NCBI GenBank assembly: GCA_002269645.1
Contig: NIVC01001785.1
Location: 173,763 to 237,762 of the forward strand
Direction: 5' to 3'
DNA length: 64,000 nt
Origin: Macrostomum lignano
Lineage: Eukaryota
The first letter of the stretch is position 1; every line of letters starts with the position of its first letter. Shown here in pieces: positions 20,756-64,000 of the stretch. The notes below the pieces were generated by a model that worked only from the letters and a program-made list of their open reading frames with translations, was not told where the DNA came from and searched no databases. Made by a program: the position numbers and the translations under genes.

Positions 20756-25635
<4,880 letters not shown>

Positions 25636-41134: not shown

Positions 41135-41474
41135 AGTAGTAGGGCGAATTATGATACTGCCGCACTAGCACTGGCGAGATAGGCGGCAATGCAAATGTAT
41201 AGGGAAAAATACACTGCGGAGATATGAGCCCTATCTCTGTGCATTGGGGACGGCTAAGCACTGCAGAGATATGAGCTCTATCTCTGTGCATTGGGGACGG
41301 CTAAGCACTGCAGAGATATGAGCTCTATCTCTGTGCATTGGGGACGGCTAAGCACTGCAGAGATATGAGCTCTATCTCTGTGCATTGGGGACGGCTAAGC
41401 ACTGCAGAGATATGAGCTCTATCTCTGTGCATTGGGGACGGCTAAGCACTGCAGAGATATGAGCTCTATCTCTG
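41135..41474 (+). repeat. Left TIR (340 bp) including five 47-bp units
   Basis: Starts AGTAGTAGGGCGAATTATGATACTGCCGC; matches the right TIR in reverse complement. Confidence 0.93.
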
Positions 41475-43375: not shown

Positions 43376-44036
43376 CTAAGCAATTTTTGTACTTTTTTGC
43401 TTTCTGTGTGGAGTGAGAAATCTACCCATTTATTGCAATCATATATACTAAAAATGAAATGTCTGTAACTATCTAGCTATGCGATAGATTTCAGAAAAAG
43501 TGGCTCAACCGATTTTCTTCAAACTTGCACCATTTGATCAGAAATTTTCCTGGGACTGTACATGCATCTTGGCTAAGAAATTGCTTAATTTTAAAGGGAT
43601 TAAATATTCGAAAAACATGCTTTTTTGCAAAGGTCAAGCAGCTCTTTCGACCTGAAATGAATTGTAAAAATGCGAAAGAAAAAACTGACTGACTGAATTT
43701 CAATTGTGATAAAGATTGCATCACAACAAGATGAAAACAGTGTCGAAAAAATGCACACAAGACTTGATTGTAATTGCGTAACCATATTGCTAACTTGAAT
43801 TGAGACTGATACTGGCTGACTGAGAAATTGATTATGTCATAACTTTTTACTCTAACTGACTTGCTATAAGAATTGAATTATAAGGGCCACAATACATGTT
43901 CTCCAATTGAAAAGAGATAGCCAAGATGGGAACAGACTGGACTGCTAATGTAGCGACCTGGGTTCGAATCTTAGTAGTGCAAAAACATTTTTTTATTAAA
44001 ACACTTTAAAACACAAAATGCTAAACATAAAAGAAG

Positions 44037-45830
44037 CGCAATGTCAAATATAAAAGAGCCACCATGCCAAACAAAAAAAAGTGCCACCATGTAGAACACA
44101 GAAGAGACACCATGTCAAACATAAAAGAGCCACCATTTCAAACATAAAAGAGCCACCATGTGAAACATATACGTGACTCAATGTCAAACATTAAAGAGCC
44201 ACCATGTCAAACATTAAAGAGCCACCATGTCGAACATAACAGAGACAACATTTCAAACATAAAAGAGCCATCATGTCAAACATAAAAGAGCCACCATGTC
44301 GAACATTAAAGAGCCACTATGTCAAACATAACAGAGACAACATTTCAAACATAAAAGAGCCATCATGTCAAACATTAAAGAGCCACCATGTCGAACATTA
44401 AAGAGCCACCATGTTGAACATTGAAGAGCCACCATGTCAAACATTAAAGAGCCACCAAGTAAAATATAAAAGAGCTACCATGTCAAACATAAAAGAGCCA
44501 CCATGTCGAACATAACAGAGACAACATTTCAAACATTTAAGAGCCACCATGTCAAACATAAAAGAGCCACCATGTCGAGCATAAAAGAGCCACCATGTCA
44601 AACATAAAAGAGCCACCATGTCAAACATTAAAGAGCCACCATGTCAAACATTCAAGAGAAACCATGTCGAACATAACAGAGACAACATTTCAAACATTTA
44701 AGAGCCACCATGTCAAACATAAAAGAGCCACCATGTCGAGCATAAAATAGCCACCATGTTGAACATTAAAGAGCCACCATGTCAAACATTAAAGAGCCAC
44801 CATGTCGAGCATAAAAGAGCCACCATGTCGAACATAAAAGAGCCACCATGTCAAACATTAAAGAGCCACCATGTCAAACATTCAAGAGACACCATGTCGA
44901 ACATAACAGAGACAACATTTCAAACATTTAAGAGCCACCATGTCAAACATAAAAGATCTACCATGTCAAACATAAAAGAGCCATCATGTCAAACATAAAA
45001 GAGCCACCATGTCGAACATTAAAGAGCCACCATGTTCAACATTAAGGAGCCACCATGTCAAACATAAAAGAGCCACCATGTCAAACATTAAAGAGCCACC
45101 ATGTCAAACATTAAAGAGCCACCATGTCAAACATTCAAGATCAGCCATGTCGAACATAAAAGAGCCACCATGTAAAATATAAAAGAGCTACCATGTCAAA
45201 CATAAAAGAGCCATCATGTCAAACATAAAAGAGCCATCATGTGAAACATATACGTGACTCAATGTCAAACATTAAAGAGCCACCATGTCAAACATATACG
45301 TGACTCCATGTCAAACATTAAAGAGCCACCATGTCAAACATATATGACTCCATGTCAAACATATATGACTCCATGTCAAACATATATGACTCCATGTCAA
45401 ACATTAAAAATAAAAAAGACACCATGTCACACATAAGGGAGCCACCATATCAAACATAAAAGAGCTACCATGTCAAAACATTATTGAGCCATTATGCCCA
45501 ATATAAAAAGACACAATTTCAAATGTAAAAGGGCCGCCATGTCAAACATAGAAGAGCCACCATGTCAAACATAGAAGAGCCACCATGTCAAACAACTAAG
45601 CCACCATGTCAAACATAACAGAGACACCATTTCAAACGTAAAAGGGCCGCCATGGCAAACATAGAAGAGCCACCATGTCAAACATTAAAGAGCTACCATG
45701 TCAAACACAAAAGGGCCACCACGTCCAACATTAAAGAGCTATCATGTCAAACACAAAAGAGCTACCATGTCAAACATTAAAAAGCCACTTTTTTAAACAA
45801 AAAAGAGACACCATTTCAAACATAAAAGAA
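44037..45830. repeat. 23-bp satellite in Helitron 1 (~75 copies)
   Basis: AAGAGCCACCATGTCAAACAT(T/A)A units. Confidence 0.93.
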
Positions 45831-45899
45831 GTGTCATGCCAAACAAAATGAAACCATTATAAAGCTAAGGAAATTGTTGCACTAGCTACTTGTTCTCTG

Positions 45900-46700
45900 G
45901 TGGATGCTTGCTATTTAAGGATGGATACTTGCTATCAGGGGGATGCTTGCTCTTGGGGGTGGAGAGTACTTGCTATCTGAGAGGGGGTTGCTAGATATCT
46001 ATAAGGTATCTTTGTATCCAGGTTATGCTTGCTATCAGGGGTTGCTTGCTGTCTGGGGATGCTTGCTATCTGGGGGGGGGATGCTTGCTATCTAGGGATG
46101 CTTGCTATCTGCGGGATGCTTGCTATCTGGGGGATGCTTGCTATCTGCGGGATGCTTGCTATCTGGGGGACGCTTGCTATCTGGGGTCTGGGGAATGCTT
46201 GCTATCTGGGGATGCTTGCGATCTGGGGGATGCTTGCTATCTGAGGAATGCTTGCTATCTGGGGGATGCTTGCTATCTGCGGGATGCTTGCTATCTGGGG
46301 ATGCTTGCTATCTGGGGTCTGGGGAATGCTTGCTATCGGGGGATGCTTGCAGTCTGGGGGATGCTTGCTATCTGGGGATGCTTGCCATCTGGGGGACGCT
46401 TGCTATCTGGGGTCTGGGGGAATGCTTGCTATCTGGGGATGCTTGCGATCTGGGGGATGCTTGCTATCTGAGGAATGCTTGCTATCTGGGGGATGCTTGC
46501 TATCTGCGGGATGCTTGCTATCTGGGGGATGCTTGCTATCTGGGGTCTGGGGGAATGCTTGCTATCGGGGGATGCTTGCAGTCTGGGGGATGCTTGCTAT
46601 CTGGGGATGCTTGCTATCTGGGGGATGCTTGCAGTCTGGGGGATGCTTGCTATTTGGGGATCAATGCTTGAATGTTGTCTGAGGATGCTTGCTGTCTTGG
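45900..46700. repeat. 18-20-bp satellite in Helitron 1
   Basis: GATGCTTGCTATCTGGGG units. Confidence 0.92.
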
Positions 46701-47501
46701 GATGTTTTGTTTTTAAGAGGGAATGTCTGTTGTTTTTTCTGAAGGCTTTATTTCGCTGTCTATTTGTTATTTGTAAAAAACAAGGATTCTATCCAGATGT
46801 CCCCCATCGGGGGCAAAGATTGCTAGTCCTATATACTAAAAATGAGTTGTCTGTGGGTATGCGATAGATTTCAGAAAAATTGGCTCAACCGATTTTCTTC
46901 AAACTTGCACCATTCGATCAGAAATTTTCCTGGGACGGTACATGCATCTTGGCTAAGAAATTGCTCAATGTTAAAGGGATTAAATATTCGAAAAACATGC
47001 TTTTTTGCAAAGGTCAAGCAGCTCTTTCGACCTGAAATGCATTGTAAGAATGCTAGAGAAAAAACTGACTGACTGAATTCCGATTGTGATAAAGATTGCA
47101 TCACAACAAGTTGAAAACAGTACCGAAGAAATGCACACACAACTTGATTTAAATTGCGTAACCATATTGCTAACTTAAATTGAGACTGATACTGGCTGAC
47201 TGAGAAATTGATTATGTCATAACTTTTTACTCCAATTGACTTGCTGAAAGAATTGAATTATAAGGGCCACAATTCATGTTCTCCAATTGAAAAGAGATAG
47301 CCCTGATGCGAACAGACTGGAATGCTAATGTAGCGACCTGGGTTCGAAGCTTAGTAGTGCAAAAAGATTTTTTTTATTAAAACACCTTAAAAACACAACA
47401 AAACTGCTAAACATCAAAGAAGCGCAATGTCAAACATAGAAGAGCCAACATATCGAACATAAAAGAGTTACCATGTCAAACATAAAAGAGCTACCATGTC
47501 G

Positions 47502-48093
47502 CCATATAGGAAAAAGTTGTAAAACCGCGGACGGTGTCCGGCGCACTTTTGAAATTTTTCTAAAGCGCAGCGCGCGCATAGGCGCAGCGCCTGCGCGCGC
47601 TGCCCTTTCTTACTGGCTGCTGCTCTAGCAAATACATATACATGGAAATGGGTATAATACCTCTGTTGAAGGGGCTTATACACTCGTAATTTATTAAGCT
47701 TAGAGATGTTCCGAAAATTCAATTTCAATTTTCCAAAATTTGAAATTTTTTAGAGCAAATTTCAATTTCGAAATAAAATTTAGAAGTGAAAATTTTGGTA
47801 GTGTCTAAAAAGTCGCTAAAAATAAACTACTTTCTACTACATAAACATGTATTACTTTTTGCTTAAGCAGTAAATTGAAAGTAAAAAAGTGAGTGTTGAT
47901 CATACTAAACTTTGTTTTTCTGAATTATGATTTCGGGAAATTTTAATTTTGATTTTGGAAAGTTAGCGAATTTTGATTTCGACGAAACTGCAGATCTTTC
48001 GGAACATCTCTAATAATCCTAAAGCGCGGTAAAATAGTTTGACTCTTTTCCAAAGCGCGCATCCGCGGGTTTTTAACATTTATTCCAATAGGG
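47502..48093. mobile_element. 592-bp MITE with 8-bp TSD
   Basis: TSD CCATGTCG at 47494-47501 and 48094-48101; ~30-bp imperfect TIRs ending in CCGCGGA; removing it restores a satellite monomer. Confidence 0.7.
47701..48012. mobile_element. 312-bp hAT-like MITE nested in the 592-bp MITE
   Basis: Perfect 16-bp TIR TAGAGATGTTCCGAAA / TTTCGGAACATCTCTA; the flanking 8-mers match at only 5/8. Confidence 0.6.
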
Positions 48094-49169
48094 CCATGTC
48101 GAACATTAAAGAGCCACCATGTCGAACATTAAAGAGCCACCATGCCAAACATAAAAGAGCCACCATGTCAAACATAAAGAGCCACCATGTCAAACATTTA
48201 GGAGCCACCATGTTAAACATATATGTGACTTTATGTCAAATATTAAAGAGCCACCATGTGAAACATTAAAGAGCCACCATGTCAAACATTTAAGAGCCAC
48301 CATGTCAAACCTAAAAGAGCCACCATGTCTAACAGTAAAGAGCCAGCATGTCGAACATTAAAGGGCCACCATGTAGAACATTAAAGAGCCACCATGTCAA
48401 ACAATTAAAAGCCAGCATGTCAAACATAAAAGAACCACTTTGTTGAACACTAAAGAGCCACCATGTCAAACATAAAAGAGACAACATGTCAGACATTAAA
48501 AAGCCACTGTATCAAACATAAAAGAGTTACCATGTAGAACATTAAAGAGCCACCATGTCGAAAATTAAAGAGCCACTATGTAGAATATTAAAGAGCCACC
48601 ATGAAGAACATTAAAGAGCCACCATGTCAAACATTTAGAAGCCACCATGTCAAAGATTTAAGAGCCACCATGTCAAACATTTAAGAGCCACCATGTCAAA
48701 CATAAAAGAGCCACCATGTTAAACATTAAAAAGCCACCATGTCAAACATAGAAGAGCCACCATGTCAGATATTAAAAAGAGCCACCATGTCGAACATAAA
48801 AGAGCCACCATGTCGAACATTAAAGAGCCACCATGTCAAACATATATGTGACTTTATGTCAAACATTAAAGAGCCACCATTTCAAACATTAAAGAGCCAC
48901 CATGTCGAACATTAAAGAGCCACCATGTCAAACATTAAAGAGCCACCATGTAAAACATTAAAGAGCCACCATGTCTAACAGTAAAGAGCCACCATGTCGT
49001 ACATTAAAGAGCCACCATATTGAACATTAAAGAGCCAGCATGTCGAACATTAAAGAGCCACCAAGTCAAACATAGGAGACACAATTTCAAACGTAAAAAG
49101 AAGCGTCATGCCAATCACAAAGGAGCCATTATAAAGCTAAGGAAATTGTTGCACTTGCTACTTATTGTC

Positions 49170-49405
49170 CGGTGGATGCTTGCTATTTAGTATAGGATCA
49201 ATACTTGCTATCAATTGGTTGCTTGCTATCTGGGGTGCTTGCTATCTGGGGGTGCTTGCTATCTGGGGGTGCTTGCTATCTGGGGGTGCTTGCTATCTGG
49301 GGGTGCTTGCTATCTGGTGGTGCTTGCTATCTGGAGGTGCTTGCTATCTGGTGGTGCTTGCTATCTGGAGGTGCTTGCTATCTAGGGGGATGCTTGCTGT
49401 CTTAG
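49170..49405. repeat. 19-bp satellite in Helitron 2
   Basis: GGTGCTTGCTATCTGG(G/A/T)G units. Confidence 0.9.
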
Positions 49406-50367
49406 GATGTTTTCTTTTTGCATTGCACTTCATCTGAGCAGTTTTTCTATTGACTATGTGAAGGCTTTGTTTGGCCATCTTATTGATACTTGTAGAGAAC
49501 AGAGATTCTATCTAGATGTCCCCCATCGGGGGGCGAAGATTGCTAGTTATTGCTAAAACTTTATTTCAACTAGCTTTTTAAAGTTGAAAGTAGGTACATT
49601 AATTAATGATTTGATCATCTCATAACTCTGTATTCGCTTCTAGGAATCTTGCTTATAAGTTTTCAGTTTTCATTTCCAAATTAGTTTTAAAAAAAGCTCG
49701 TAGCTCGTAGTGGCAACCAATATTTTTTTGGTATCCGAGGTAAAAAAAAATTATTTGAAAAGTAGGTGAAACATTATACAGTTGAATTTAACAAATTAAA
49801 ATCAACATAACATACTTTCAATAAATTGGTGATGGTTTCGTATGCTTGGTGCGATTGATTAGGTATAATTTTCTTTCTACTGCTTTGATGCGGTGTTTCC
49901 TCATTCTTTAATTATTGAACTTTTCAGCTATATTTCTGCTTCTAAACTCTCGTCTGTATTTGTAATTCATTGTTCCATGCATTGTTTATTGACTATGATT
50001 GCACCATGTGAATTCGATATTTTTTTAAAAAATATATATATAATGTCAGCATTTTTCCACTCGGTGATTGGTTTGTTAATTAACTATTGGCTTCATTTTG
50101 CATTTTTTACCGATTGAGTCTGCGTAGGAGGCAAATAGAAACGAACTTTTACGAATAGGGATCAATAGAATATGCATGCAGAGAGCTAGCTTAAGGGAGA
50201 ACCAAAAAAATATAACCAGCATCTACTAGCTTGTAAGTGTGGATATTGTACCAGTATTGCAGCAATAAAGACTTACGAAAAAAGATTTCAAATATTCACT
50301 CCCAGTTGCTTATGACACTCAGTTGCAGCCAGTAAACACTGTCAGCTTTTAACTGCTTGCCTTTTCT

Positions 50368-50996: not shown

Positions 50997-53900
50997 GTTC
51001 AACAGTCAGCTTCAGCAGAGTTGCCCAAGCCTATGATCAATCACTGGAAATACTGAGGCTCAGATCGAGTCACCCAGACACGCTTCCGTCAGAATTTTTT
51101 GTCCAAGCTGGAGACAAAATTATTGAGGCAGTTCAGCAAAGAATTTCAAGACATCATTACAAAGTTCAGCTAAAGGCGAATATTCGAATGGTCCGAATAA
51201 GAGATGGGGAGATGCTTGCCGAAGAGGACAGATGGATAAGCTGTAAAATGCAGGCCCTAGACCTAGGTGGTGAAGCAGGCCGTTTAAACAACTGGTTGAT
51301 TGAGCAGGAGCAGGAGTTGGAGAGGATCTGTAGTATGATTAATACGAACGGCAGTGGCTGGACAATTAAACAAATTAATTTTCTAGACATCAACCTTGCC
51401 AGGTACAATCCAATTCGATTTCGCCAGGGCAGAGCCGTTAGATTCAATCTTCCTGCCAGTTTGAAGAACAAAAAGGCTGTTATCAATCCACCGAGCACAG
51501 GCAAAGACTGTTTCCTGTACGCCTGTCTCGCTGCACTGCACAGCGCCGATCCGAAAGTTCAGAAATCGCCCAACAGAATATCCTCTTACGATGAATGGTT
51601 GCGTGAGCTGGACTTTGCAGAAATCTCCATGCCAGTGAGTGTCGCTGATATCGATCGCGTCGAGTCTAACAATCCAGGAATTTGCATTTCTGCGTTCTCT
51701 TGGCAGCAGGGCAGTGTGACTCTTCTCCGTCGCCGCAAGCATGAGTCAGATGACCGAAGACACCTCATGCTTTTGCTAGTTAAAGACAGCTACGGATCGG
51801 AGCACTGGTGTGCAATTACTAATTTTGACAGGTTAATGAACAGTCGTAATGGTCCCGCCATGAGGAAGTGGTGCACGAAATGTTTAACATCATTTTATAG
51901 CAACGAGAGGCTTCAAGAGCACAGGAACGAATGCAGCATTACTGCAGAAAATCCTGTCAAAGAAACGCTTCCAGTTCCAGGACAGAATGAAATAAAGTTC
52001 CGAAACTGTCAAAACACTGTCAGTCCACCATTCGTTGCCTATGCCAACCTGGAAGCCATTTTGCGAGCGAACACAGACCCTGCTAACCTGATCTCAAAGC
52101 ATGAACCATGTGCAGCAGCTTTTCTTGCAGTGCCTCGTGAAGGCATGACAGGACCTCCGCTTAGGCCAGAAGGAGACATGTACAAGGTCTTTTGCAATGC
52201 GGACCCTGATGAGTGTATCCTTGGTTTTCTCAAATCTCTTGAAAGCCTGGCTCAGGATATATTTCACTGGAACCAGAAGCATAGCCACCAGCCGGCTGAC
52301 CGATCATCCGCGACCGTCATGGATGATTTCAATTCTGCTGAGGTATGTCACTACTGCAAGAAGAACTTTAAAAGTTCTACAGATAAACATTTTGACCACG
52401 ATCATTTAAATGGACAGTACAAAGGTGCAGCATGTCAAGAATGCAACCTGCGAGCACAGCTCCGACGCCGGTTTCTGCCCCTGGTTTTTCACAACTTAGG
52501 CGGCTACGACCTTCATCTTCTACTTTCCACTGCGCTTGGGAGCATGAAAAATTGGAAACTTAGTGTTGTTCCGCAATCATCCGAGCGATACTTGTCACTA
52601 AGGGCGGAATTCCCTGTTGCAAGTTACGTAAAGAACGGAAAAGTTGTGCCAATCATGTTTACAATTCAGTTCATCGACTCGCTCTGCTTTTTGAAGGGAA
52701 GTTTGTCCAATTTGTTTGCTAATCTTCCCGAAGCTGAATGCAAGCTGACAATGCAAATGCTTGAGTCAAGACCACATCTTTCAAGAGAGCTACTTCGAAA
52801 AAAGGGATTTTCCCATATGATTACCTCACAGGATTTGAGATTCTCGAGCAGTCGGTTTTGCCGCCTAAAGATGCTTTTTTTAATCGACTTTCCGATCGGG
52901 GAATTTCCGACGACGACTACAATAGAGCAAGAGCGGCATGGGCGGCATTTCAATGCAAAAGTTTGAAGGATTATATGCTCGCCTATCTTGAAATGGATGT
53001 AAGGCAGCTGGCTGACATTTTCGAGACATTCCGACAGGCCAGTCTGAAAGAGGACGGATTGGATCCGGTACACTACTTTACTACTCCTGGTTTGTCTTAC
53101 GACTCAGCTCTAAAGTCGACTGGAGTGGTTCTAGAGCAGCTGACTGATGCTGACATGTATCATCTGTTTGAGAAGGGAATACGAGGAGGCATGTCCTTCA
53201 TTAATGTGCATTGCGTCAAAGGTAATAATCCTAGCTTGCCAGGTTATGATGATCAGCAAGAGAGTGTAAGCCTCATGCCGATCGATATGAACAACTTGTA
53301 TGGCTTTGCCCTGTCGCTTCCGCTTCCATGCAGGGAATTCAGGTGGGTACCGGAACAGGAAATCCAGTTCTGGGACTCCAATCGGTTTCTGTCACTCAAT
53401 CCAGAAGCCGAGATCGCCTACCTTGTTCAACTCGATCTAGAATACCCAGCTGAGATTCACGATTCGACTCAGGAGTTACCGTTTGCACCTGAAAAATCAA
53501 AACCACAGCCAGATCAATTCTCGCCGTACATGGCCGAACTATGGAAAGAGATTGCTGAACAGCGAACTGGCAATGCTGAAGCTAAGTTTCAAGCAACGGA
53601 GAAGCTTCTACTCACCTGTACCGACAAGGATTCTTACGTAGTTCACAGCACCGTTTTAAGATTTTACCTGCAACACGGAATGCGGATCAAGTGCGTCAAA
53701 AAAATGATTTCGTTCAAGCAGGAAAATATTTTCGCGCCGTACATTGCCAGCAACAATGAAAAAAGAGCTTTGGCAACTTCCGAGTTTGCTAAGGATTTTT
53801 ACAAATTGAAAAACAATTCTCTCTTTGGAAAAACTATGGAGAACGTTCGAAAAAGATGCGATGTTCGAATTTGCACTAACCAGACTCAAGCAGAAACTTG

Positions 53901-54645
53901 CGCCTCTCGACCAAACTGTGCCGCATTCTCGATTATCAATGAGTCGTTGAGCATTTTTCAGCTCAAAAAAGATAAAGTCACGCTTGACAAGGCCATTTTC
54001 GTTGGCCAGGCAGTTCTCGATCTCTCTAAGATGGCCATGTACAGCCTACTATATGACAGGCTCCGACCGCTGTTCTGTCATTCAGACGGTTCCAGAGACA
54101 TGATGCTTTGCGGAGGTGATACTGACTCATTTTTTCTAGCTTTCAAGAATCATGATTTAACATCGGAGGTAATCCCGAAGCTTAGAGAGGAAAAAATACT
54201 TGACACATCCAACTATTCTCGAGACCATCCGCATTTCTCTGAAGAGTTAAAAGGAAAGCTGGGCTGCGTTAAAGATGAATCTGCTGGTGGAATTTACCAG
54301 GAGTGGATTCTTTTGCGTCCAAAACTTTATTCGTTTCTCCCTGCCGAGAATTCGAGTGCAAAGATCAAGAAAACTGCCAAAGGCGTGAAGCAGTCAGTAG
54401 TAAGACAGCAAATTTCGCATGCGAACTATGTCGACGCGTTCGAGTCCAAGCAAGAGCAGATGGTTGCCATGACAGCGATTGTTTCCAAGAAACACGAAAT
54501 CTTCACGTCGGTCATGGAGAAAAGAAGCCTATCGGTGTGGGAGGATAAGCGAGTGTGGCTTAGCAGTAATCGAAGCCTGCCCTACGGACACTATGCGCTG
54601 ACGCCCGCATCCCACGATCAGCTGAAGCGCATCCGACTGGTCTAG
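50997..54645 (+). CDS. polB: Protein-primed family B DNA polymerase (pPolB), one frameshift at 52798-52804
   Basis: Frame open from 50984; YANLE (ExoI), CHYC...DHDH...C (endoVII-like Zn insert), FHNLGGYD (ExoII), KGIFPYDY after the shift, DMNNLYG, KLKNNSLFGKTMEN, GGDTDS, LRPKLY, DKRVW. Confidence 0.96.
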
Positions 54646-55227
54646 TGCGGGTGTTTAACAGACTGTTTAGTACTTTTTCTTGCTTTTAGAGTTGTTTAAA
54701 TTGCCAAATTCTGTTTTAAATGTAGTGACTTGCATGTAGTAACTTTTACAAATTTGTATGCTTGGCTAATTGCGCTAGATTTAGCTGTCAATTTGTTTTT
54801 GCGGCGTGAAATATTGATATCAATTTAAGTTTTACTTTTTATAAAGCTGTGTGGCAAGTGCGCTCATACAATATTAATTCATTTTTGTTTGCTTTGTGTA
54901 CTACTTGTTTAAAATGTGTTTTTGGTTTTTATCTGACACAAATTGTTCCTGTAAATTCAATCAGCGTTTTAATCATATTTTCTCTATCACTTTTCTATTT
55001 CTCTTCTCTCGGTGCACATCGTTTGTTATAACGATGGTAGTATTGTTTACTTTCGGATTTGATATGCGTTTTGCGATACTTTTGGTGATGGGCTAAATAC
55101 GTTTTTGAAGTGTTCCATAGCTGTCTGCCTGGGAAAATGAATGTAAAGAATACCAAGTTTATCCTTTTATTCACTTTTCACTAATCATTGAAATATTTGC
55201 GGCAAATTGCTTGACTTGACTTTATTT

Positions 55228-55800
55228 TTATTCAATGGAAAGAACTACATTGAGTAGACGCATGCTATCGGTATGCAACTGATTCAAGGACCGAGCTCCA
55301 CTGAGAACAAAAGAGCCGCTGTGAAAAAGCAGACATTTACAAAAGTTTAAATTGAAAATTAAAGCAGAAAAGGATTCTGGTTCATATTCGGCGTTTGGGA
55401 TAATTGATTTTAACATTAATAAGGAAAGTGCGGAATGAACTGGGAGCTGTCCATGAGCAGTAATAGTTTTAATTCGAACACAAATTGTTTGATGAGGCAG
55501 CAGTTGAGCCGGCACTCTCCGATGCAGCATAGCCACGAAGCGACGGGCAGCCCTTTTGGCGTCTGCGTGGGTCTTGGCACCGCAGATGCTCAGTTGCCCA
55601 GTAGGGTAGAGTAGGAGAGTCACTCTGGGAATCCGCATCCGCTTGATGAGCACCCGGGGCCAGACGGGCCGGTAGATCACATGAGCCATGCTGAGAGCCA
55701 GTTCCCGTAGAGGCAGCTGAGCGCCCCTGCCACCATCCAGTCTCAGATCTACTCCGCCAACCAGATTGGTCACTCTTAGGGCTGTAGCTGGTGGGCTCAT
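55228..55800 (-). CDS. Virus-encoded divergent TATA-binding protein (TBP-like), 190 aa
   Basis: Two TBP repeats: TNLV...YRP...RMRIPRVTLLLYPTGQLSICGAK...AARRF and ...YEPESFSALIF...LLFHSGSFVLSGAR, compared with TBP QNIV...YNP...[23 protein letters not shown]...AARKY / YEPELFPGLIY...LIFVSGKVVLTGAK. First ATG is 55800 (the ORF track starts at TTG 55839). Confidence 0.9.
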   Translation of the reverse strand: MSPPATALRVTNLVGGVDLRLDGGRGAQLPLRELALSMAHVIYRPVWPRVLIKRMRIPRVTLLLYPTGQLSICGAKTHADAKRAARRFVAMLHRRVPAQLLPHQTICVRIKTITAHGQLPVHSALSLLMLKSIIPNAEYEPESFSALIFNLNFCKCLLFHSGSFVLSGARSLNQLHTDSMRLLNVVLSIE

Positions 55801-56320
55801 TTCGATCGTCAACTTCTTCACCAAATCTGCTTCTGCCAACTTTACTGCTCGTGTGCCACGGACACTGCTCGCTTCTTAAGTTGATGCAGAACTTTGGCTT
55901 AAGCCAACTGTAGTGCAGCAACGAATTTCTCACTGCACAGCCAGTATCTGAATCTTCAGTCGAGGGTGCTCCCAAATCTTCTAGGTTATAAACCTGTCTT
56001 CCAAGCAGCTCAGTCAGAAAAATCGACTTCCTTTCCCCATTTGACCAGATCGGACCACTGGCAATGCTCAGAATGTCTTCCGCCAGTTCCATGTACGGAC
56101 GGGTTCCATCATTCCACTTAAACTGGTGCAGACTCTTAGATAGCTGTCTGTAGTAAACTCGCATGTCAGGTGAGACTCTCTCCCATGGATACGGAGGTGC
56201 GTACACATGGTGAGCAATGTGGTAGCTCCCCGCTCTGATTTGAACAACTGCCAACTCCTTCACAACAAATTTTTTGCTTGTGCTGTTGCACGGGAATCCT
56301 TGGAAGTCAATGTAGTTCAT
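55469..56320 (-). CDS. Polinton accessory protein, possible DEDD/RNase H-fold nuclease; C-terminal extension suspect
   Basis: IDFQGF...FVVKELAV...PPYPW...HQFKWNDG...NLEDLGAP...CAVRN...W pattern in the first ~145 aa, recalled from animal Polintons; the rest overlaps the TBP gene in another frame. Confidence 0.55.
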   Translation of the reverse strand: MNYIDFQGFPCNSTSKKFVVKELAVVQIRAGSYHIAHHVYAPPYPWERVSPDMRVYYRQLSKSLHQFKWNDGTRPYMELAEDILSIASGPIWSNGERKSIFLTELLGRQVYNLEDLGAPSTEDSDTGCAVRNSLLHYSWLKPKFCINLRSEQCPWHTSSKVGRSRFGEEVDDRNEPTSYSPKSDQSGWRSRSETGWWQGRSAASTGTGSQHGSCDLPARLAPGAHQADADSQSDSPTLPYWATEHLRCQDPRRRQKGCPSLRGYAASESAGSTAASSNNLCSN

Positions 56321-56349
56321 GATGCAGCTTTCCTTCGAAAATTTCGGAG

Positions 56350-57042
56350 TCAGTCCACCTTCTTATATACTTTTCTGGCAGGCAATTTCAGCCAGGCTGT
56401 GTTGCTCCCGTACCCCTTGACTAGACTCTCCTGTTCTTTCTCCAGTTCACCCCCTCTGCTGGTTGCCATTTTCTTCTTAACTGATTTACCAACAGCGGAA
56501 AGCGGAACATTAAGCTTTTTCTGCTGCAGAAAATCGATGAACTCGTTCCACCCAACTGGTTCACGCTCACATGGCGAATCCCTCACTGTGTGCTGAATCA
56601 AGTCCAGTATGTTTGAGGAAGGGATTGACGTGCCTGCGATTTCCACCTCCCCGTTTTCACAAACTCGAATCAGCTCTGGATTGGTGGACAGGATCGTCCA
56701 CAGACTGCGAGCCCTGGTTTTGAATTTCTGTGGCACCGACTTGCTGATCTTCTCTTCCCAGGTGCTTATCTGGGGTGTCTCTGTTTTCATCAACTTGGCT
56801 TCAGTATTGCGTGCTCCTTCTTTTCCAGCGTGCTTGCGCTTGGCCAGCAAACTTTGCATTGCACTTTGGTACATGGCGGTTTTCACATCTTCTGGACAAT
56901 CCTCGGCATACAAGATGTCATCGCATTTCTTCTGAGCCTGCTTCAAGTCAGCTTCAGTGGTAGTCTCATTTGGCTTCAAATTCTGCATCAACATCTCATA
57001 CTCTGCTTTAGGAATCAGAACCATTTCTGAAAATTTGTTCAT
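56350..57042 (-). CDS. Conserved Polinton/adintovirus protein of unknown function
   Basis: MVLIP...DDILY...Y...SVPQKFKTRARSL...GEVEIAG...SSNILDLI...PVGWNEF...NVP pattern typical of animal Polintons. Confidence 0.75.
   Translation of the reverse strand: MNKFSEMVLIPKAEYEMLMQNLKPNETTTEADLKQAQKKCDDILYAEDCPEDVKTAMYQSAMQSLLAKRKHAGKEGARNTEAKLMKTETPQISTWEEKISKSVPQKFKTRARSLWTILSTNPELIRVCENGEVEIAGTSIPSSNILDLIQHTVRDSPCEREPVGWNEFIDFLQQKKLNVPLSAVGKSVKKKMATSRGGELEKEQESLVKGYGSNTAWLKLPARKVYKKVD
56362..56369 (-). promoter_or_regulatory. TATA box (TATATAAG) upstream of the DEDD-like/TBP-like unit
   Basis: 41 nt upstream of ATG 56320; identical to the boxes at both element ends. Confidence 0.45.
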
Positions 57043-57346
57043 TTTGCTTCTTCTTCTTTACCAGCTTAAGCAGAATCGGGAGTATTTTGATGAAGCCAGC
57101 CTTCAACAAGTCTGTCTTTCTTCTTTTGTGAGTAATTTTTCGAATTATCTCTTTTGACTTTGCAAGAACAGCTTTTTCATCGAGCGAAAACGATAGATTG
57201 TTTTGTAAGAGATTATGGCAGGCCTCGACAAGAAAATAACGCACTTCTTTTGGACAATTTTTTATCAACAGCCGCTTGAAGCGCACGGTATATTTAGGTG
57301 ACGCAAGAACCGCAAAAAGACTTGCATATGAATCAAGCACTTCCAT
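57008..57346 (-). CDS. Small basic conserved Polinton/adintovirus protein (112 aa from MEVLD)
   Basis: RLLIKNC...FLVEACHNLLQNNL...EKAVL...IIRKI...AGFIKILPILL resembles the conserved small virion-associated ORF. Confidence 0.7.
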   Translation of the reverse strand: MEVLDSYASLFAVLASPKYTVRFKRLLIKNCPKEVRYFLVEACHNLLQNNLSFSLDEKAVLAKSKEIIRKITHKRRKTDLLKAGFIKILPILLKLVKKKKQNEQIFRNGSDS

Positions 57347-57387
57347 TGCGATGAAAACAATAGCTGATAAAAACAAGCTTCACTTTC

Positions 57388-58067
57388 TTAAGCAAATACA
57401 AGATGGGGTCGCTGGTTGGGCAGAATTCTGGCCCGCACTCGCAGCTCATCGGGAGTTGATGGGTGAAAGTCTAGGAACAGGTAGGCTCCCCTGCCCTGCG
57501 CGGTCACGTGCTTGAACACTGACAGCAGAAAGCCGGGCTTCTCTGTAAAGCACTGCCTGCCCAGTGCTGCAATCTGCAGCTGGTCTCGGGGTTTTTCAAG
57601 ATAGCTAAGTACATTACATTCAAGCTCATTGTTCGCGACTCTTTTCCCTTGAAAAATATATTCTGAGTCAGCATCACCAAAAAGCACGGCAAGTGATGTG
57701 CGATTCCTGTGAAAAAATTTCGCATTGAAGCAGAGTTTGAAGTTTCCTCTATTAAGTCATCGAAAACAACCAGGTCATTGGGCCTAAGTGCTGCCTCGAT
57801 GTTGGTGGGAAATCCCTGGCGCAGCTGCACACCTAGGCTGTTCAGTTCTGCATGGCCTGCCTGTGAGATCCCATAGTACCACAGAACTCTGCCAGGCTTC
57901 ACATCAAACATGACGTCTCTGTACTGGATCAGGTGTTCGACAAAGGTTGTTTTTCCTGCATTGGTGGGCCCGCAGACAATCATGCAGCTTCCCTGCCTGA
58001 GGCGGATATCGTAGCAAACTTGCTTTTCTCCCATGTTTAATGCATAAATATTAGAAATCACGGACAT
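57388..58067 (-). CDS. A32/FtsK-like genome packaging ATPase, one frameshift near 57588-57596
   Basis: GPTNAGKT (Walker A), VVFDDL (Walker B), LTQNIFFKGKESRTMSLN; the C-terminus PRDQLQIAALGRQCF...YLFLDFHPSTPDELRVR is in the adjacent frame. The true start may be ATG 58034. Confidence 0.93.
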
Positions 58068-58106
58068 CTTTTTCTTAAGTTGGCTTCAAACCTCTGTAAG
58101 ATTCTA

Positions 58107-58568
58107 TCATTCAAATGATTTTTCATTAGCATGCAAATGCTTCAAAATCCCCTCAAATGACCGATTGAACAGAAACTTTTGATAAGCAAAATAGATGCAA
58201 AACATTCCGCATTTATTAGAGTTAGCACATTGAACTCTGTTTATATTGCTTCGGAGCCAAAAGCCAGTTGTTTTAATCTCTCGAAACAAATTATAAACCA
58301 AAGATAAAATTTCAGGTTCCCAGCCGAGGGAGTTGAACAACTCAATGCGATTTCCTTGCCCAACATAGCACACCACCCAGTGACCAAATGAGCCATTGTG
58401 CTGAAGTAGGACAAAAACAAACTTGTTTTCAAAGGAAATTGATGATCTAAATTTTCTTTTTACATTCAAGGGCAGAGAATTTTTATAGCGCAAATGTAAA
58501 GTAACTATGAGAAATTTTTGGTAAGGCAAAAATTTTCTGGCGAGATTAAGTAGTTGAATTGCATCCAT
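58107..58568 (-). CDS. Adenain-like cysteine maturation protease
   Basis: GHWV (His), ELFNSLG, VQCANSNKCGMFC (Gln, Cys); 153 aa, intact. Confidence 0.9.
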   Translation of the reverse strand: MDAIQLLNLARKFLPYQKFLIVTLHLRYKNSLPLNVKRKFRSSISFENKFVFVLLQHNGSFGHWVVCYVGQGNRIELFNSLGWEPEILSLVYNLFREIKTTGFWLRSNINRVQCANSNKCGMFCIYFAYQKFLFNRSFEGILKHLHANEKSFE

Positions 58569-58573
58569 GTCAA

Positions 58574-59855
58574 TTAAGAGGAATAGTCCAGCAAAAGCTC
58601 TCGGTGCTTGGTGACCTCAATCAGCGAGTCATACAGGCACATAGCAATCAGGGACACCGCTTCATTCAGAGCCTGTTGGAAGCGAATCTCCAGCCGCAGG
58701 TTGCCCTCCTTCTGTCCGTACCACAGAGCCGCTCCCTCGGGTGTGAGATCGAATGCAAACACCGTGTGTTGTTGGAGAAGAGCTGGTAGGGGATCCACGG
58801 ACCGAGTTTGTGTGGCTTGCAGATTGACAGCTTTTCAGGTAGTGCAAGTATTCTCTTACGAAGGAATTGTTTTCAGGTGTGAAGGCGCCGTGGCACACGG
58901 TTTCCCCACCTTTCTTTAGAGCCAATCGGCTAAGGTTGAAGCTCTGGAACTGTAACGGGCTCGCGTGATGATGACCGTTGAATGCTCGGTGGCTCACGAA
59001 GGCCAGCATGATGAACTTCGGCAATTTTCCATGAGTGAATCCTTCAATGTTTTTTGACTGAATACCCTGGGGTAGGATGAAGTTCTGCATTTCAGTTCGC
59101 TCGATGGGATACAGTGCATTTTGGTTTGTCAGCCCCTGCTCATGGGCCAGGCTGATGTGGGGCATCACTTTGACTCGGCGAAGATGCAGAATGCTGTGAG
59201 AGATTTCCATTCGGTATGCCGCGTTGTTTGCATTCGGGGTTCTGATGGCAAAGGCCCCATCGCTGGGGACCAGTTTGATGTGCAGGTGCAGATTGCTTAG
59301 CAGAAACACTGGGCACTGGAAAACATCGCTGAAGAGCGGCCCCGCATACTCCATCCATTGGGATTCCCTGTGGCTCTCCGTGTGCTCTTCAGCTGCCGAG
59401 TTCGGCTCCAGGAAGCCAGCAGGGTAAAGTTTTAGTTGCTGGGCATCGGATGAGCTCATTAGTGCTTTGAAGTACGCATGGTAGGGATAGAGCTGGTCTC
59501 CACCAGACACCACTCGCTGGTTAATGCTCACAATTACATCTGAGAAGGCTGTAGACAGAACAAAATTTTCTGGGTGCACGTCACTGTCTCTGCGCTCGGT
59601 GATGATGCCATCTCCATCTCGAACATCCTCCCTCAGCAAACCCCCATCCAGTCTCACAAGGCGGCAGCGAATATAAAGAAAAGAATTAAGCAGATCTGTA
59701 TATTCATCGGCAGATTGGTGGCAGTCAAATTCAATGGGAGAGTTTGCAACAATGGAATTAACTGGGTGAATATCAACATAAGTAGCTTTTTCAATGCAGG
59801 TTTGTAGAACGGGCGTCTTAAATAAATCAAGTCTGGGATTGAATCCGTAAGCCAT
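58574..59855 (-). CDS. Major capsid protein (double jelly-roll hexon), one frameshift near 58832-58835
   Basis: LDLFKTPVLQTCIE...SPIEF...DEYTDL...YPYHAY...AFNG...F; the C-terminus VFAFDLTP...GNLRLEIRF...IEVTKHR..LLDY is in the adjacent frame. Confidence 0.92.
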
Positions 59856-59857
59856 GT

Positions 59858-60235
59858 CTATGACAGAGAGTCGAGCACGCGTTTCACAGTTTTCTTGCTG
59901 ACTTTTTGCTTTCGCTTTCCTCCGCCTGCTCTATTCTTCTTTGCTTTCGTCTTCCTATTCTTAAGCTTTTTCCCACTAGCCTTGCTCGACCTCTTACTGC
60001 GATTTCCACCAGTTGCCTTTCGGGTGCCCTTCTTTTTCTTCAATCGTTTCGGACTTGCTTCAGTATTTCTTTTGCGCCTGACGTTGCTAAGCGTCGAGGC
60101 TGATGATGATGATATAGCCGCTGGCGGAGGCTGGTATGTCATGATCCCTGGGAAGCTCCCACAGCCATAGAGTGCAGGCTTTTCGTGTCCTGTCCTCACC
60201 CCCGAATATTGCTGGATTAGCTGCTGGTAGTTCAT
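59858..60235 (-). CDS. Small Lys/Arg-rich putative core (DNA-condensing) protein, 125 aa
   Basis: Starts MNYQQLIQQYSG...LYGCG and ends in a very basic tail; the ATG overlaps the corrected penton stop (ATGA). Confidence 0.6.
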   Translation of the reverse strand: MNYQQLIQQYSGVRTGHEKPALYGCGSFPGIMTYQPPPAAISSSSASTLSNVRRKRNTEASPKRLKKKKGTRKATGGNRSKRSSKASGKKLKNRKTKAKKNRAGGGKRKQKVSKKTVKRVLDSLS

Positions 60236-61049
60236 TGAATGCGTTTCTCCTGAATTTGAACTGTAAGCAGAACAGGGCTGTGAGTCTGTGCAATCAGTGG
60301 GCAACCATAGATGTCCGCAGCTGAACTCGAATGCTGTGAAGAAGACTGATTCGTTGAATCGGGAAGAATATTGTTTTCTTAAATATTTTTGTTTGATAGT
60401 TGCCCCATTCAATGCCAGCTTTCATTCCAACTGTTCTCAACAAGGAGCTCCAGTTGCAATTAGTTGACTCAACGATACTGCAGTGCACATTGATTAAGCT
60501 GGTGCGCGGGCAGCCAATGCAATGCTCGGATACGCGGCTCCCTGGCTGGATTTTCACAGCCTGGTTTCCAAATCCCAGCCAATGCAGAATTTTACTAGAT
60601 GGAAGAAACAGCTCTGCTCTCGCAGTGTTGTTGTGCACCACAGTTCGTGAGTTGCGGATTTCGAACTTCATACCAAATTCCCTGTTGCCACTACGCCCCA
60701 TCAGGCCGGACTCATCAGCCTCCATCTCAGACTCCCTGTCACTCATTGCATCAAAGAACAGCGAATCAGAGTTGGCCAGCAGCTCATTCAGGCGCTCCAC
60801 CAGCTCCTCCACTCTAGCAAAGCGTCCGGGTTGAAGAACCAGGGCCTCATGCTCTCTTCCATCTGAGACAGTGAAGCAGTAAGGCTCGTCAACATTGAAC
60901 CATGCAGCAGGCAGATGGATTTCAGCCAGACCTGCCTCATAGTCCACATTTCGATCCAAGTAAATAGGTGAAGGCAGGTAAAAATTAAAGTCACTAGGAG
61001 TACCTTCAGCATGCTCACTGTTAATCAAAATAGTTCGCATTATAATCAT
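60232..61049 (-). CDS. Minor capsid protein (penton), one frameshift near 60315
   Basis: DFNFYLPSPIYL...YEAGLAEIHLP..WFNV...PG...LGF...VHCSIVE...LLRTV; the C-terminus DIYGCPLIAQTHSPVLLTVQIQEKRIQ* is in the adjacent frame. Confidence 0.85.
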
Positions 61050-61077
61050 AAACTACATGATGAGGGCTGTGCCAAAG

Positions 61078-62148
61078 CTAAACCTTTCTTAAGTCTTTTT
61101 CATCCACCCAGCCAGTCGAGTCGTAGCCCGCCCATTTCACCAGATAGCGAATTTTTCCCTTCCGCTTCTCCGTTTTCAGGATCTTCTCAATCACATACAG
61201 CCGCTGTGAGTCCGGGACAGCCTGCAGCTCGTGCTCATGGAAGAGTCCTCGAATCTCTTGCCCCCGCATGTCTTTAATCTTGTACATGTAGGGATAATGT
61301 TTTGGGGCTCTGCTCACCACGGTGTACACTTCCTCACTCCAGCTCGCTTTGTATCCCTTTTTGAATATCCGTGGAGCATTGGAAATTCTCACTGACTGGT
61401 TTTCAGCGAACTTAGGCTTCTTTAATTTTTCTAGAGTCTCGACTGCTTTTCCATCGTACAGGTTCATCCACACTTCAGATTCATTCTCTTTGCAGACACT
61501 AGTGGGTGCCATTTTGATGCTTCTGTGGTAGGTATTGTTGTAGGATTTTACCAGCTTAGGCAGCACATCAAGCCAGTGCAGTGTGCTCTTGTAGGTGAAG
61601 TAGCGCCACATTCTACTTTTCAGAGTTCGATTCCATCGCTCAATGACAGCTGCCTTCTGCTCGCTGTTAGTTGGGAAAGCCAGAATCCCTCTGTCAATGC
61701 AGTATTGACGGAAAGTGGAGTTGATAAATTCCTTCCCCTGATCTGTGCGAACTGTGCGTGGCTGGCGCTTTGAACTTCTCAGTATGCTCTCGAATGCTGA
61801 CTTCACTTCTGCAGCAGATTTATTTTTCAGTGCCTTGGCCCAAGCACATTTTGAGAGCACGTCAATGCATGTGAGAATATATTTGTAGCCTTTATTATGC
61901 TTTGCGAATGGAATCATTTCCACTAAGTCAAGTTCCCACTGATCATCGATTGCGCGCACTATGATTGGGGCCCTTGGATATCGCCTCCTAGCTGGCTTGT
62001 GCAGAGTGTGCACTGGCTGCTCGCTGAGCCACTGCTCAATGCTCTTTGCAGATATTCGATCACCTCTTTGCCTCACTTCATGCAGCAACTTTGAGGCACA
62101 AGAAAAACTAGCCGGTTGCTCAGGTTTCAAATAAATTTTCTCCATCAT
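61078..62148 (-). CDS. int: RVE (DDE) integrase with C-terminal chromodomain
   Basis: WELDLVEM (D), RTDQGKEF (D), AVIERWNRTLK (E); chromodomain YVIEKIL...YLVKWAGY...GWV; 356 aa, intact. Confidence 0.96.
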   Translation of the reverse strand: MMEKIYLKPEQPASFSCASKLLHEVRQRGDRISAKSIEQWLSEQPVHTLHKPARRRYPRAPIIVRAIDDQWELDLVEMIPFAKHNKGYKYILTCIDVLSKCAWAKALKNKSAAEVKSAFESILRSSKRQPRTVRTDQGKEFINSTFRQYCIDRGILAFPTNSEQKAAVIERWNRTLKSRMWRYFTYKSTLHWLDVLPKLVKSYNNTYHRSIKMAPTSVCKENESEVWMNLYDGKAVETLEKLKKPKFAENQSVRISNAPRIFKKGYKASWSEEVYTVVSRAPKHYPYMYKIKDMRGQEIRGLFHEHELQAVPDSQRLYVIEKILKTEKRKGKIRYLVKWAGYDSTGWVDEKDLRKV

Positions 62149-62474
62149 GGGTTTATCAAGATACGTGCCTATCCACCTGCTCTAGCTGTACAGTATTTTT
62201 TCTTAAGTAGAAATTTATATTCCAATTAAATGATAGAGAAACGAGTGGCAAATTAATTTATTACTGTCAGATTGAAACCTCTAACATCGTAACAGTCGGT
62301 GTATTTTCCGAAAGCAAACAATCCATAAAAACGAACACTAAAACACTCGCACACCAGCATTTCAGAAATAGCAGAGATAAAAACAGCATAGTGCCGTCAG
62401 GCTGGATAATCATGTGCAAGCTAAAAGTAATTTAGTTAGTCCAATGCATTCAAAGCATTCTAGCTGTTCAGTTA

Positions 62475-62822
62475 TCAAAGCGAACATTGGGCTGCAGCCT
62501 CATCGCGTCCTGCCGACGAAGTTGAAATGGCAGCTTTCGCTTCCTGCTGCTGCTGCTCACCGTCGAAGCCGCTGCATGCGCCTGAACTGATACCACACCG
62601 GATCTTCTCAAGGTTGGTGTCCCGCTGCGGAAGCAGTCCAGCATCAGAATCAACCGAAGGTATCGGTGTGGATGTGATTGGCTCAGTCACAATGCGCGGC
62701 CTTGTGGGCGAGCTAACGTCCTCGTCATCAGCATGATCTCCGCCCTCATCAGTCTCCATTATGGGCTTCGTGTCCTGGTCAGCCTCCAACTTGAGCTTTG
62801 TCCTCTTCCTCCTCTTCCTCAT
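62475..62822 (-). CDS. Acidic/basic disordered ORF, possibly the frameshifted tail of the PC4-like gene
   Basis: MRKRRKR (NLS-like) followed by a D/E/S/P-rich stretch; overlaps the end of ORF 62779-63099 in a GAGGAA-rich run. Confidence 0.4.
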   Translation of the reverse strand: MRKRRKRTKLKLEADQDTKPIMETDEGGDHADDEDVSSPTRPRIVTEPITSTPIPSVDSDAGLLPQRDTNLEKIRCGISSGACSGFDGEQQQQEAKAAISTSSAGRDEAAAQCSL

Positions 62823-63099
62823 CAGACTCCAGCTCGTACTGCATTGTGTTCCTCAAGGGAGCCACCAGCTGACCGTCGATCCAGGAGGCGATTTTCCAGA
62901 GCTTCTGCCACAGCGGCGGAGTCAGTGGTACGGCGTTTCGTCTCAAAAACTCCTCGCAGCAATCTTCCGGCAGCCGTTTGAGCCAAATGATGCCGCCTTT
63001 GACTTCCACAAACTTATCGAAGCCGAGTTTCACGACCTTGGGCTCGTTGTTGCGTGCAGAAATCACAAGTGAGCGTTTCCCTCCTTCAATTTCTTCCAT
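62779..63099 (-). CDS. Second, divergent PC4/Sub1-like domain
   Basis: KLGFDKFVEV...NAVPLTPPLWQKLWKIASWIDGQL compared with PC4 QIGKMRYVSV...[24 protein letters not shown]; acidic tail ESDEEEEEED. Confidence 0.6.
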   Translation of the reverse strand: MEEIEGGKRSLVISARNNEPKVVKLGFDKFVEVKGGIIWLKRLPEDCCEEFLRRNAVPLTPPLWQKLWKIASWIDGQLVAPLRNTMQYELESDEEEEEEDKAQVGG

Positions 63100-63239
63100 T
63101 GGTGAACATTCAGGTTGAATCCTGGGACGCCTGGCTTCAGACTTGCCGTGCTGCCGTGTCGGTAAAATTTGCGAATAGCGATAAATTTTTGTCCTTCAAA
63201 CTCCTGGACTTGTGCCTTATAGCCTTCACAGATGTCCAT
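63063..63239 (-). CDS. PC4/Sub1-like ssDNA-binding coactivator domain (58 aa, absent from the ORF track)
   Basis: MDICEGYKAQVQEFEGQKFIAIRKFYRHGSTASLKPGVPGFNLNVHQWKKLKEG compared with PC4 FKGKVLIDIREYW...[19 protein letters not shown]. Confidence 0.85.
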   Translation of the reverse strand: MDICEGYKAQVQEFEGQKFIAIRKFYRHGSTASLKPGVPGFNLNVHQWKKLKEGNAHL

Positions 63240-63343
63240 TTTCCTTTCGCAATTGAAAACTCACAAAAGTTAAAAGCTGAGGAAAATTTCGGATGAAATT
63301 TTGGATTTGAAAAATTGAGAATTCTTTCTTGTCAATTTCGGGG

Positions 63344-63679: not shown

Positions 63680-64000
63680 CAGAGATAGAGCTCATATCTC
63701 TGCAGTGCTTAGCCGTCCCCAATGCACAGAGATAGAGCTCATATCTCTGCAGTGCTTAGCCGTCCCCAATGCACAGAGATAGAGCTCATATCTCTGCAGT
63801 GCTTAGCCGTCCCCAATGCACAGAGATAGAGCTCATATCTCTGCAGTGCTTAGCCGTCCCCAATGCACAGAGATAGAGCTCATATCTCTGCAGTGCTTAG
63901 CCGTCCCCAATGCACAGAGATAGGGCTCATATCTCCGCAGTGTATTTTTCCCTATACATTTGCATTGCCGCCTATCTCGCCAGTGCTAGTGCGGCAGTAT
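63680..64000 (-). repeat. Right TIR (321 bp visible) with five 47-bp units
   Basis: Reverse complement of 41154-41474. Confidence 0.95.

Follow-up and report, generated by a model that had tools for sequence, protein, structure and literature searches.

A tandem PC4-like gene of Polintons in the flatworm Macrostomum lignano encodes a predicted single-chain PC4 pseudo-dimer and candidate single-strand-binding protein

PC4 is a symmetric homodimer of single units, an arrangement classed as type II among the PC4-like domains (PMC7549692). Single-chain PC4-like domains form a described class of their own, type I, with Pur-alpha, Whirly/P24 and MRP1/2 (Janowski and Niessing 2020, PMC7549692). In PC4, base stacking has been assigned to F77 and W89, and binding of the backbone to R70, R86, R100 and K101 (PMC4350104). 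A PC4 homologue of phage T5 acts in replication (PMC7549692). Tandem PC4 repeats are mentioned in PMC3575825, and 16 of the 32 matches that we scanned are cellular proteins with two to four canonical PC4 repeats, often together with DEK_C; one is from the green alga Chloropicon. In an adintovirus, the label "MOSUB" occurs once, beside an ITR label, in Supplementary Fig. S2 of Starrett et al. 2021, where "SSDBP" genes are labelled also; the main text of that paper does not mention MOSUB, Sub1 or a coactivator, and the passages and the part of the supplement that our look-up covered give MOSUB neither a tandem structure nor a function (PMC8502044). A PC4/Sub1-like gene kind has already been labelled in an adintovirus, and both single-chain PC4-like domains and tandem PC4 repeats are already known. 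We found no paper that describes a tandem PC4 in Polintons, in a search that left most subscription journals and supplements outside, and the term PC4 was absent on look-up from the accessible text of PMC11161782, PMC10748475, PMC11071296, PMC11131425 and bioRxiv 10.64898/2026.10.13.758929.

Here we analyse a PC4-like gene in a window of 64,000 nucleotides from M. lignano (GCA_002269645.1, contig NIVC01001785.1, positions 173,763 to 237,762), the right part of which is a young Polinton/Maverick of about 22.9 kb between its repeats (Table 1). Pfam searches and a repeat comparison identified inverted repeats, a retroviral-type integrase, a protein-primed PolB and a C5 protease. The inverted repeats are 100% complementary over 321 bases, and the contig stops within the right one. 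The presumed capsid ORFs match no Pfam family and the ATPase gives only weak P-loop matches; these are names that we assume from typical gene size and order. The element's TATA-binding protein (TBP) is strongly divergent, its first half nearly invariant across subfamilies and its second half variable. Genome-wide there are at least 150 TBP-repeat matches, mostly in open frames of 187-221 aa, and those fetched are Polinton-borne. Just inside the left repeat lies a 472-aa ORF (41957-43375) with a Cys-rich start, long Ala/Pro repeats and no clear family. Between this left-end ORF and the polymerase, the stretch at about 43400-50300 is AT-rich, with short repeats and hexapeptide-like ORFs, and is possibly an insertion. 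Outside the Polinton, an animal host is indicated by two reverse transcriptase loci of LINE type and an ORF for a 7-transmembrane receptor (13110-15618, 21817-25635 and 19218-20204).

Table 1. Features of the Polinton and its tandem-PC4 gene, in window coordinates
Feature	Position	Strand	Basis or remark
Tandem-PC4 gene	62468..63239	-	257-258 aa in most natural copies; four breaks in this assembly
Repeat 1 (58-aa ORF), near-canonical PC4 unit	63063..63239	-	Pfam PC4 36 bits; human PC4 alignment; fold
Repeat 2, degenerate unit with predicted PC4 fold	62857..63045 (approximate limits)	-	HHalign 94.4%; fold search of repeat alone
Acidic, poorly conserved linker	62625..62856 (approximate limits)	-	pN/pS 0.73; 22-35% identity between subfamilies
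Conserved C-terminal tail: DPxWY motif and basic KRKL-LRRQ stretch	62468..62624 (approximate limits)	-	pN/pS 0.38; invariant columns
TATA box, 112 bases upstream of start codon	63344..63351	-	
AATAAA poly(A)-type signal, downstream of stop codon	62257..62262	-	
Right terminal inverted repeat	63680..64000	.	100% complementary to 41154-41474; runs off contig end
Left terminus AGTAGTAG and left terminal inverted repeat	41135..41474	.	element begins at 41135
Integrase with chromodomain	61078..62148	-	next gene downstream of tandem-PC4 gene; Pfam rve 50.3 bits, Chromo 25.4
Divergent two-repeat TBP of element	55228..55839	-	Pfam TBP 86.6 bits; spacing equal in other copies
Protein-primed type B DNA polymerase	51188..54645	+	Pfam DNA_pol_B_2; two ORFs in this assembly

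In this assembly the PC4-like gene is in pieces. A preliminary description of the window had reported a hidden 58-aa PC4 ORF, a second, divergent PC4-like domain in the overlapping ORF 63099-62779 and a possible tail in ORF 62822-62475, and had proposed to fuse them across two frameshifts. In a DNA search of this genome (764 Mb), 40 of 92 candidates were scored, of which 36 reached full length at 98% or better. Thirty loci were fetched, the window's own among them. Twenty-five of the 30 contain a single ORF of 257-258 aa from a common start codon; in the other five the ORFs are 58 (the window), 33, 33, 247 and 259 aa long. Three database relatives (246-272 aa) hold the parts in one chain. Ten of the database relatives P0001-P0068 were looked up; their contigs, where there is one, do not exceed 2.6 kb. 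There is next to no doubt that the pieces at 62468-63239 form one gene with a single ORF. The proposed fusion was right in substance, since other copies read through and do not keep two separate ORFs, but the junction peptide suggested for it differs from that of the natural copies. The window copy has four breaks rather than two: one near 63.08 kb, one near 62.80 kb and a pair near 62.6 kb. Only part of ORF 62822-62475 therefore belongs to the tail, and the reading frame of natural copies runs to the stop at 62468.

The breaks themselves appear to have arisen in the assembly. At each of the four breaks, contigs from all four sequencing runs compared, one run per study, have a length other than that of the window, at full or nearly full depth. 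Length differences from the same runs are found at the break in the polymerase (4/4 runs) and at breaks in the presumed capsid genes. Aligned with copy L002, the window shows no mismatches and six gap openings in 3107 bases, and L002 and L007 have neither mismatches nor gap openings over 3127 bases. A pattern of gaps with no substitutions suggests read or polishing errors rather than decay. The frameshifts of the window are thus very probably assembly errors and not a lesion of this copy, although contigs collapse copies and a true lesion in this one insertion may exist. Nothing biological hides the gene, given gaps without mismatches between the window and L002. A practical warning for this assembly is that its young multi-copy elements contain indel errors which look like frameshifted genes.

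A programmed frameshift or a real two-gene pair was considered and rejected, with a single ORF in 25/30 loci and runs that differ from the window at the breaks. A related alternative is a real functional split, in which recoding or a recurrent frameshift would give a free single PC4 unit besides the tandem protein. The window and four sister-subfamily copies are indeed broken at codons 54-57, near the window's first break and where a free repeat 1 would end. However, the four sister copies are broken not at one codon but at three, and for two of these breaks the closest intact copy has a substitution at the site (seven copies compared), as expected from polishing errors in collapsed repeats. 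Nor is the frame break conserved among copies of the window's own family: the 58-aa end occurs in 1/30 loci, and the four runs all lack it at full depth. We regard a functional split as hardly credible. From the sequences, codons 54-57 read as an error-prone spot, though the recurrence of breaks there speaks against assembly error and is not fully explained.

The reported 58-aa ORF is present at 63239-63063, and as repeat 1 of the natural protein it matches Pfam PC4 (PF02229) at 36 bits, above the gathering cut-off of 25 (E 5e-9); the whole natural protein scores 32.6. Repeat 2 stays below the cut-off and matches no Pfam family at E 0.1; P0001-P0003 each show one PC4 stretch only, and ORF 62822-62475 gives no convincing Pfam family. 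The relation of repeat 2 to PC4 was pursued with profiles. A four-sequence profile retrieved 67 proteins at E <=0.001 among 1.84 billion, 16 of which were chosen by eye as being of the same type, one of them spanning repeat 2 only. With P0001, P0002, P0070 and the natural copy these made an alignment of 20 rows, from which canonical multi-PC4 proteins were excluded because they could bias the fold. In HHalign, the repeat-2 profile and one built from 142 canonical PC4 repeats matched at 94.4% over 58 columns (score 35.6), compared with at most 1.7% (score at most 12.3) for 30 column shuffles and 0.17% for a reversed alignment. The match falls to 59.6% when the profile is built from the seven closest rows alone. 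Repeats 1 and 2 match each other directly at only 2.1%, so the duplication is visible only via canonical PC4.

Structure prediction points the same way. An AlphaFold2 model of residues 1-135 (pLDDT 87.9, pTM 0.80) consists of two strand-helix repeats. In a search of 48,161 chains, the domain as a whole was matched best by Pur-alpha repeats I-II (3k44; Z 9.5, rmsd 4.1 over 117 residues, model range 1-128), which would imply that helices may be swapped between the repeats. Next are MRP1/2 (2gia, Z 7.1), two uncharacterised cyanobacterial proteins, human PC4 and Whirly (1l3a, Z 6.0). Repeat 1 superposes on human PC4 (6ycs) with an rmsd of 1.2 over 64 residues. Folded alone, repeat 2 (pLDDT 87.3) has human PC4 as its first match (rmsd 2.9 over 59 residues), followed by MoSub1, with a Z of 6.3 that falls in the range the structure-search tool calls common; Foldseek with repeat 2 alone also places PC4 first, with a weak E-value of 0.085. 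The four-strand-plus-helix PC4 fold is found in each repeat by the predicted models, the fold searches and the profile match. Repeat 2 is thus predicted to be a PC4-fold unit: no score is decisive alone, but the sequence profile and two structure searches agree on the family. The second PC4-like domain of the preliminary description stands as a PC4-fold repeat by profile and fold, though it belongs to no Pfam family.

With high confidence, we predict that the first ~128 residues form a single-chain PC4 pseudo-dimer, as had been suggested earlier and as the single ORF and the predicted fold both support. In secondary structure the model shows the type I arrangement: one chain with a pair of strand-helix repeats and a linker. 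The type II arrangement of one unit per chain does not apply, with two units in one ORF in 25/30 loci. By prediction, the tandem protein files as a type I PC4-like domain and not as an ordinary PC4/Sub1.

Each of the known systems shares part of this architecture. The best viral fold match is MOSUB of the Branchiostoma lancelet adintovirus (UniProt A0A5H3CIS2; E 1.9e-5, TM 0.69 over the 135-residue model, 168 columns). It comes from the same kind of element and was compared by fold alone, with a sequence identity of 17%. A single PC4 chain reaches a TM of only 0.44 on the same model, which suggests that MOSUB is probably tandem too. For eukaryotic PC4/Sub1 (PF02229; 1pcf, 6ycs, 4usg; MoSub1, 4bhm), the likeness lies in the Pfam score of repeat 1 and in the fold searches, where both repeats rank PC4 first or near first. 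The architecture differs, since the domain of host PC4 is C-terminal and preceded by a Ser/acidic/Lys-rich region, whereas the tandem protein begins with two unequal units that are followed by the acidic linker and the tail. Cellular multi-PC4 proteins score as PC4 in every repeat, whereas the Polinton repeat 2 has lost the PC4 signature and has a conserved pattern of its own. Pur-alpha repeats I-II, Whirly/P24 and MRP1/2 have the two-repeat single-chain topology in common with the tandem PC4, at 8-11% identity and with no common Pfam family; the type I examples in the review are without sequence likeness to PC4, whereas the tandem PC4 is recognisably PC4-derived (PMC7549692). The phage T5 homologue (4bg7) is likewise a viral PC4-fold replication protein, but it is a single-unit homodimer, and its replication is recombination-dependent, not protein-primed.

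Both repeats are under purifying selection, as estimated from seven subfamily copies (21 pairs, synonymous sites near saturation): pN/pS is lowest in repeat 1 (0.21) and repeat 2 (0.28), intermediate in the tail (0.38) and highest in the linker (0.73). The residues that would contact DNA are distributed between the repeats. Among 28 sequences, repeat 1 has Phe or Tyr in the F77 column (position 14) in 19, and in all 28 it has Arg at R86, Tyr or Phe in the W89 column (position 26) and Gly at G99; its K101 column is an invariant Pro and its R100 column mostly hydrophobic. Repeat 2 has Lys or Arg at R70 (28/28), R86 (28/28) and R100 (27/28), and in the profile alignment its F77 loop is shortened by a four-residue gap and its W89 column is non-aromatic. 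In these alignments the losses are complementary, with repeat 1 keeping the stacking aromatics and repeat 2 the basic residues. Because repeat 1 is without equivalents of R100 and K101 and repeat 2 without both aromatics, affinity could be low. Outside the repeats, the net charge is -8 to -12 in the window's family, and the linker is acidic. The basic stretch of the tail (KRKL-LRRQ) resembles, in our reading, a nuclear localisation signal. We also take the tail stretch aromatic-x-L-R-R-Q-x-A-hydrophobic (L002 residues ~238-250 and relatives) to look like a substrate site of CAMK-group kinases; the acceptor position is Ala, and Thr in one subfamily, which would fit a possible pseudo-substrate.

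From these residues and the predicted fold, the tandem-PC4 protein is likely to bind single-stranded nucleic acid. It could instead bind RNA or another structured nucleic acid, or act as a decoy against host PC4 or a host defence. Type I PC4-like domains include RNA binders, and MRP1/2 bind the RNA backbone via one of their two sheets (PMC7549692); repeat 2 is basic and without aromatics. Against this, repeat 1 is recognisably PC4/Sub1 and keeps the residues that stack on single-stranded DNA, and the Whirly, PUR and MRP Pfam families were matched by none of the window ORFs, P0001-P0003 or a natural copy. An RNA-binding or decoy role seems improbable to us.

The gene's surroundings bear on what such binding would serve. 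A TATA-like box is present 46-112 bases upstream in all 11 related PC4 genes checked. A second box, CTTAAGAA, occurs six times on the coding strand and not once on the other within 55000-63300, compared with 0.2 expected from 200 base shuffles. Its positions are 62207, 61093, 59965, 58079, 57392 and 55880 (minus strand), preceding the integrase, the presumed capsid genes, the ATPase, a 122-aa ORF and the TBP, and five sister subfamilies retain it. TATATAAG takes its place at the PC4 gene, a 283-aa ORF and the left-end ORF. From these patterns, CTTAAGAA versus TATATAAG is a candidate early/late promoter split.

The tandem PC4 could be a dedicated partner of the element's own TBP and help to open a late promoter class. 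The CTTAAGAA box before the structural genes allows that a separate promoter class may exist, and both genes occur in two distant Polinton lineages. TBP is present in five of six sister-subfamily loci, all five of them Polintons. In a distant family with 35% identity and a different gene order, all three loci are Polintons with TBP, and the PC4 gene is convergent with the neighbouring TBP. Joint presence within one virus lineage is, however, explained by descent, and two further lineages (C and D) break the association. In these, the tandem gene lies head-to-head with a polymerase too distant to match that of the window.

In lineage C, the neighbour was a DNA_pol_B_2 gene in all four contigs first fetched, where TBP, capsid and integrase went undetected, and a dUTPase then follows the PC4 gene. 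Eight stretches of 10 kb around four copies gave no match to 12 window proteins or to the TBP profile, in searches that did find the controls. Lineage D is smaller still: all four elements (G000:C41, C24, C493 and C986; L106-L113) are 8.8-9.8 kb long and complete between inverted repeats of up to 100% over 903 bases, and they consist of polymerase, a 165-aa tandem PC4 and little else. TBP, capsid and integrase were not found in any of the four. Three of them hold an ORF of 332-336 aa without clear Pfam family. A 6-bp target-site duplication, a trait of Polintons/Mavericks, is present in 3/3 elements whose ends were examined. With 6-bp target duplications and no integrase of their own found, lineage-D elements are probably inserted by a helper integrase.

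Many more genomic copies pair polymerase with tandem PC4. A related element of ~10.4 kb (G000:C1263, L099:4515-10000 and L088:1-4957) has 370-base inverted repeats, polymerase, a 268-aa tandem PC4, an ORF without assignment and dUTPase; the type also occurs in C157, C471, C694, C566 and C1159, and some copies are rearranged. One contig, G000:C1753, contains several lineage-C-type PC4 genes, three of them ~3.4 kb apart. In lineages B and C the two repeats are followed by another C-terminal domain, common to both lineages, which is Trp-rich and has no Pfam family (L086:8135-8827, L088:1195-1998, P0040, L084:67-816). By eye, no relation is seen between the tail of lineage A and those of B/C. Beyond this genome, IMG/VR pattern scans with A1, A4 and the lineage-D protein found no relative, tblastn found no match to tandem PC4 in phage records, and in JGI metagenomes A1 found none and A4 one 1.5-kb contig with uninformative neighbours.

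Where the context is readable, the PC4 gene is always accompanied by a polymerase and only sometimes by TBP; L089 and L095 showed no recognisable neighbours. A PC4 gene that accompanies polymerase in elements without detectable TBP cannot depend on its own element's TBP, and this distribution favours a single-stranded DNA-binding role in replication over a TBP partner. In the full-size Polintons the protein may still act with the viral TBP, but we consider the TBP partnership a poor prospect, about as doubtful as the RNA and decoy readings.

Another possibility is that the protein is a transcription cofactor used with host RNA polymerase II, its PC4 domain stabilising open element promoters and its linker and tail recruiting host factors. 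PC4/Sub1 is itself a cofactor of transcription and replication (PMC7549692), and the acidic linker, the charge outside the repeats, the conserved tail and the gene's own TATA box in 11/11 copies would all suit this. No viral TBP would be required, so that it would fit the small elements too. But the host already has a single-domain PC4. A 145-aa protein scoring 73.5 bits, with matches at three places (G000:C37, C98 and C1344; L054-L056) and an intronless ORF in L054, is probably the host's own gene. The 165-aa lineage-D form has little besides both repeats, and the tails that would do the recruiting look unrelated between lineage A and lineages B/C. We think a Pol II cofactor unlikely, if less so than the TBP partner.

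On balance we lean, by a modest degree, towards replication as the main role, given the predicted fold, the residues and the gene's neighbours. The two PC4 units are predicted, by model and profile, to fold onto each other and so to rebuild in one chain the two-sheet domain of the PC4 homodimer. Freed from symmetry, the units have diverged, as the alignments show, with the base-stacking aromatics retained in repeat 1 and the backbone-binding basic residues in repeat 2. When the polymerase replicates the element's linear DNA by protein priming and strand displacement, the resulting protein, predicted to be monomeric and asymmetric, probably binds the single strands that are melted or displaced and stabilises them. 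The gene is probably expressed early, from the TATA promoter beside the terminal repeat, and partner proteins may be contacted through the acidic linker and the conserved tail.

A fuller version of the replication reading is put forward tentatively. The asymmetric tandem PC4 would be the dedicated single-strand-binding protein of a group of animal Polintons, a product of PC4 duplication with its DNA-binding residues shared between the halves into one directional surface; together with polymerase it would make up a minimal two-gene replicon in capsid-less, integrase-less elements of ~9-10 kb that copy themselves and borrow the integrase of Polintons. Alternatively, the small elements may depend on a helper and retain the gene to activate their own transcription. 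Of the six lineage-C-type elements that we examined, two ~9.5-kb copies share the polymerase of the others but have no PC4 gene, so that it is dispensable in cis there.

Among protein-primed replicators, adenovirus and phi29, for example, rely on single-strand-binding proteins of their own. The main text of the Polinton papers that we searched names no PC4-type protein in this role. The tandem PC4 is a concrete, small and soluble candidate for the single-strand-binding protein of Polintons. It also offers a natural case in which a symmetric PC4 homodimer has become an asymmetric single-chain domain that is still recognisable as PC4, a step that may have been taken long ago by the Pur-alpha, Whirly and MRP proteins.
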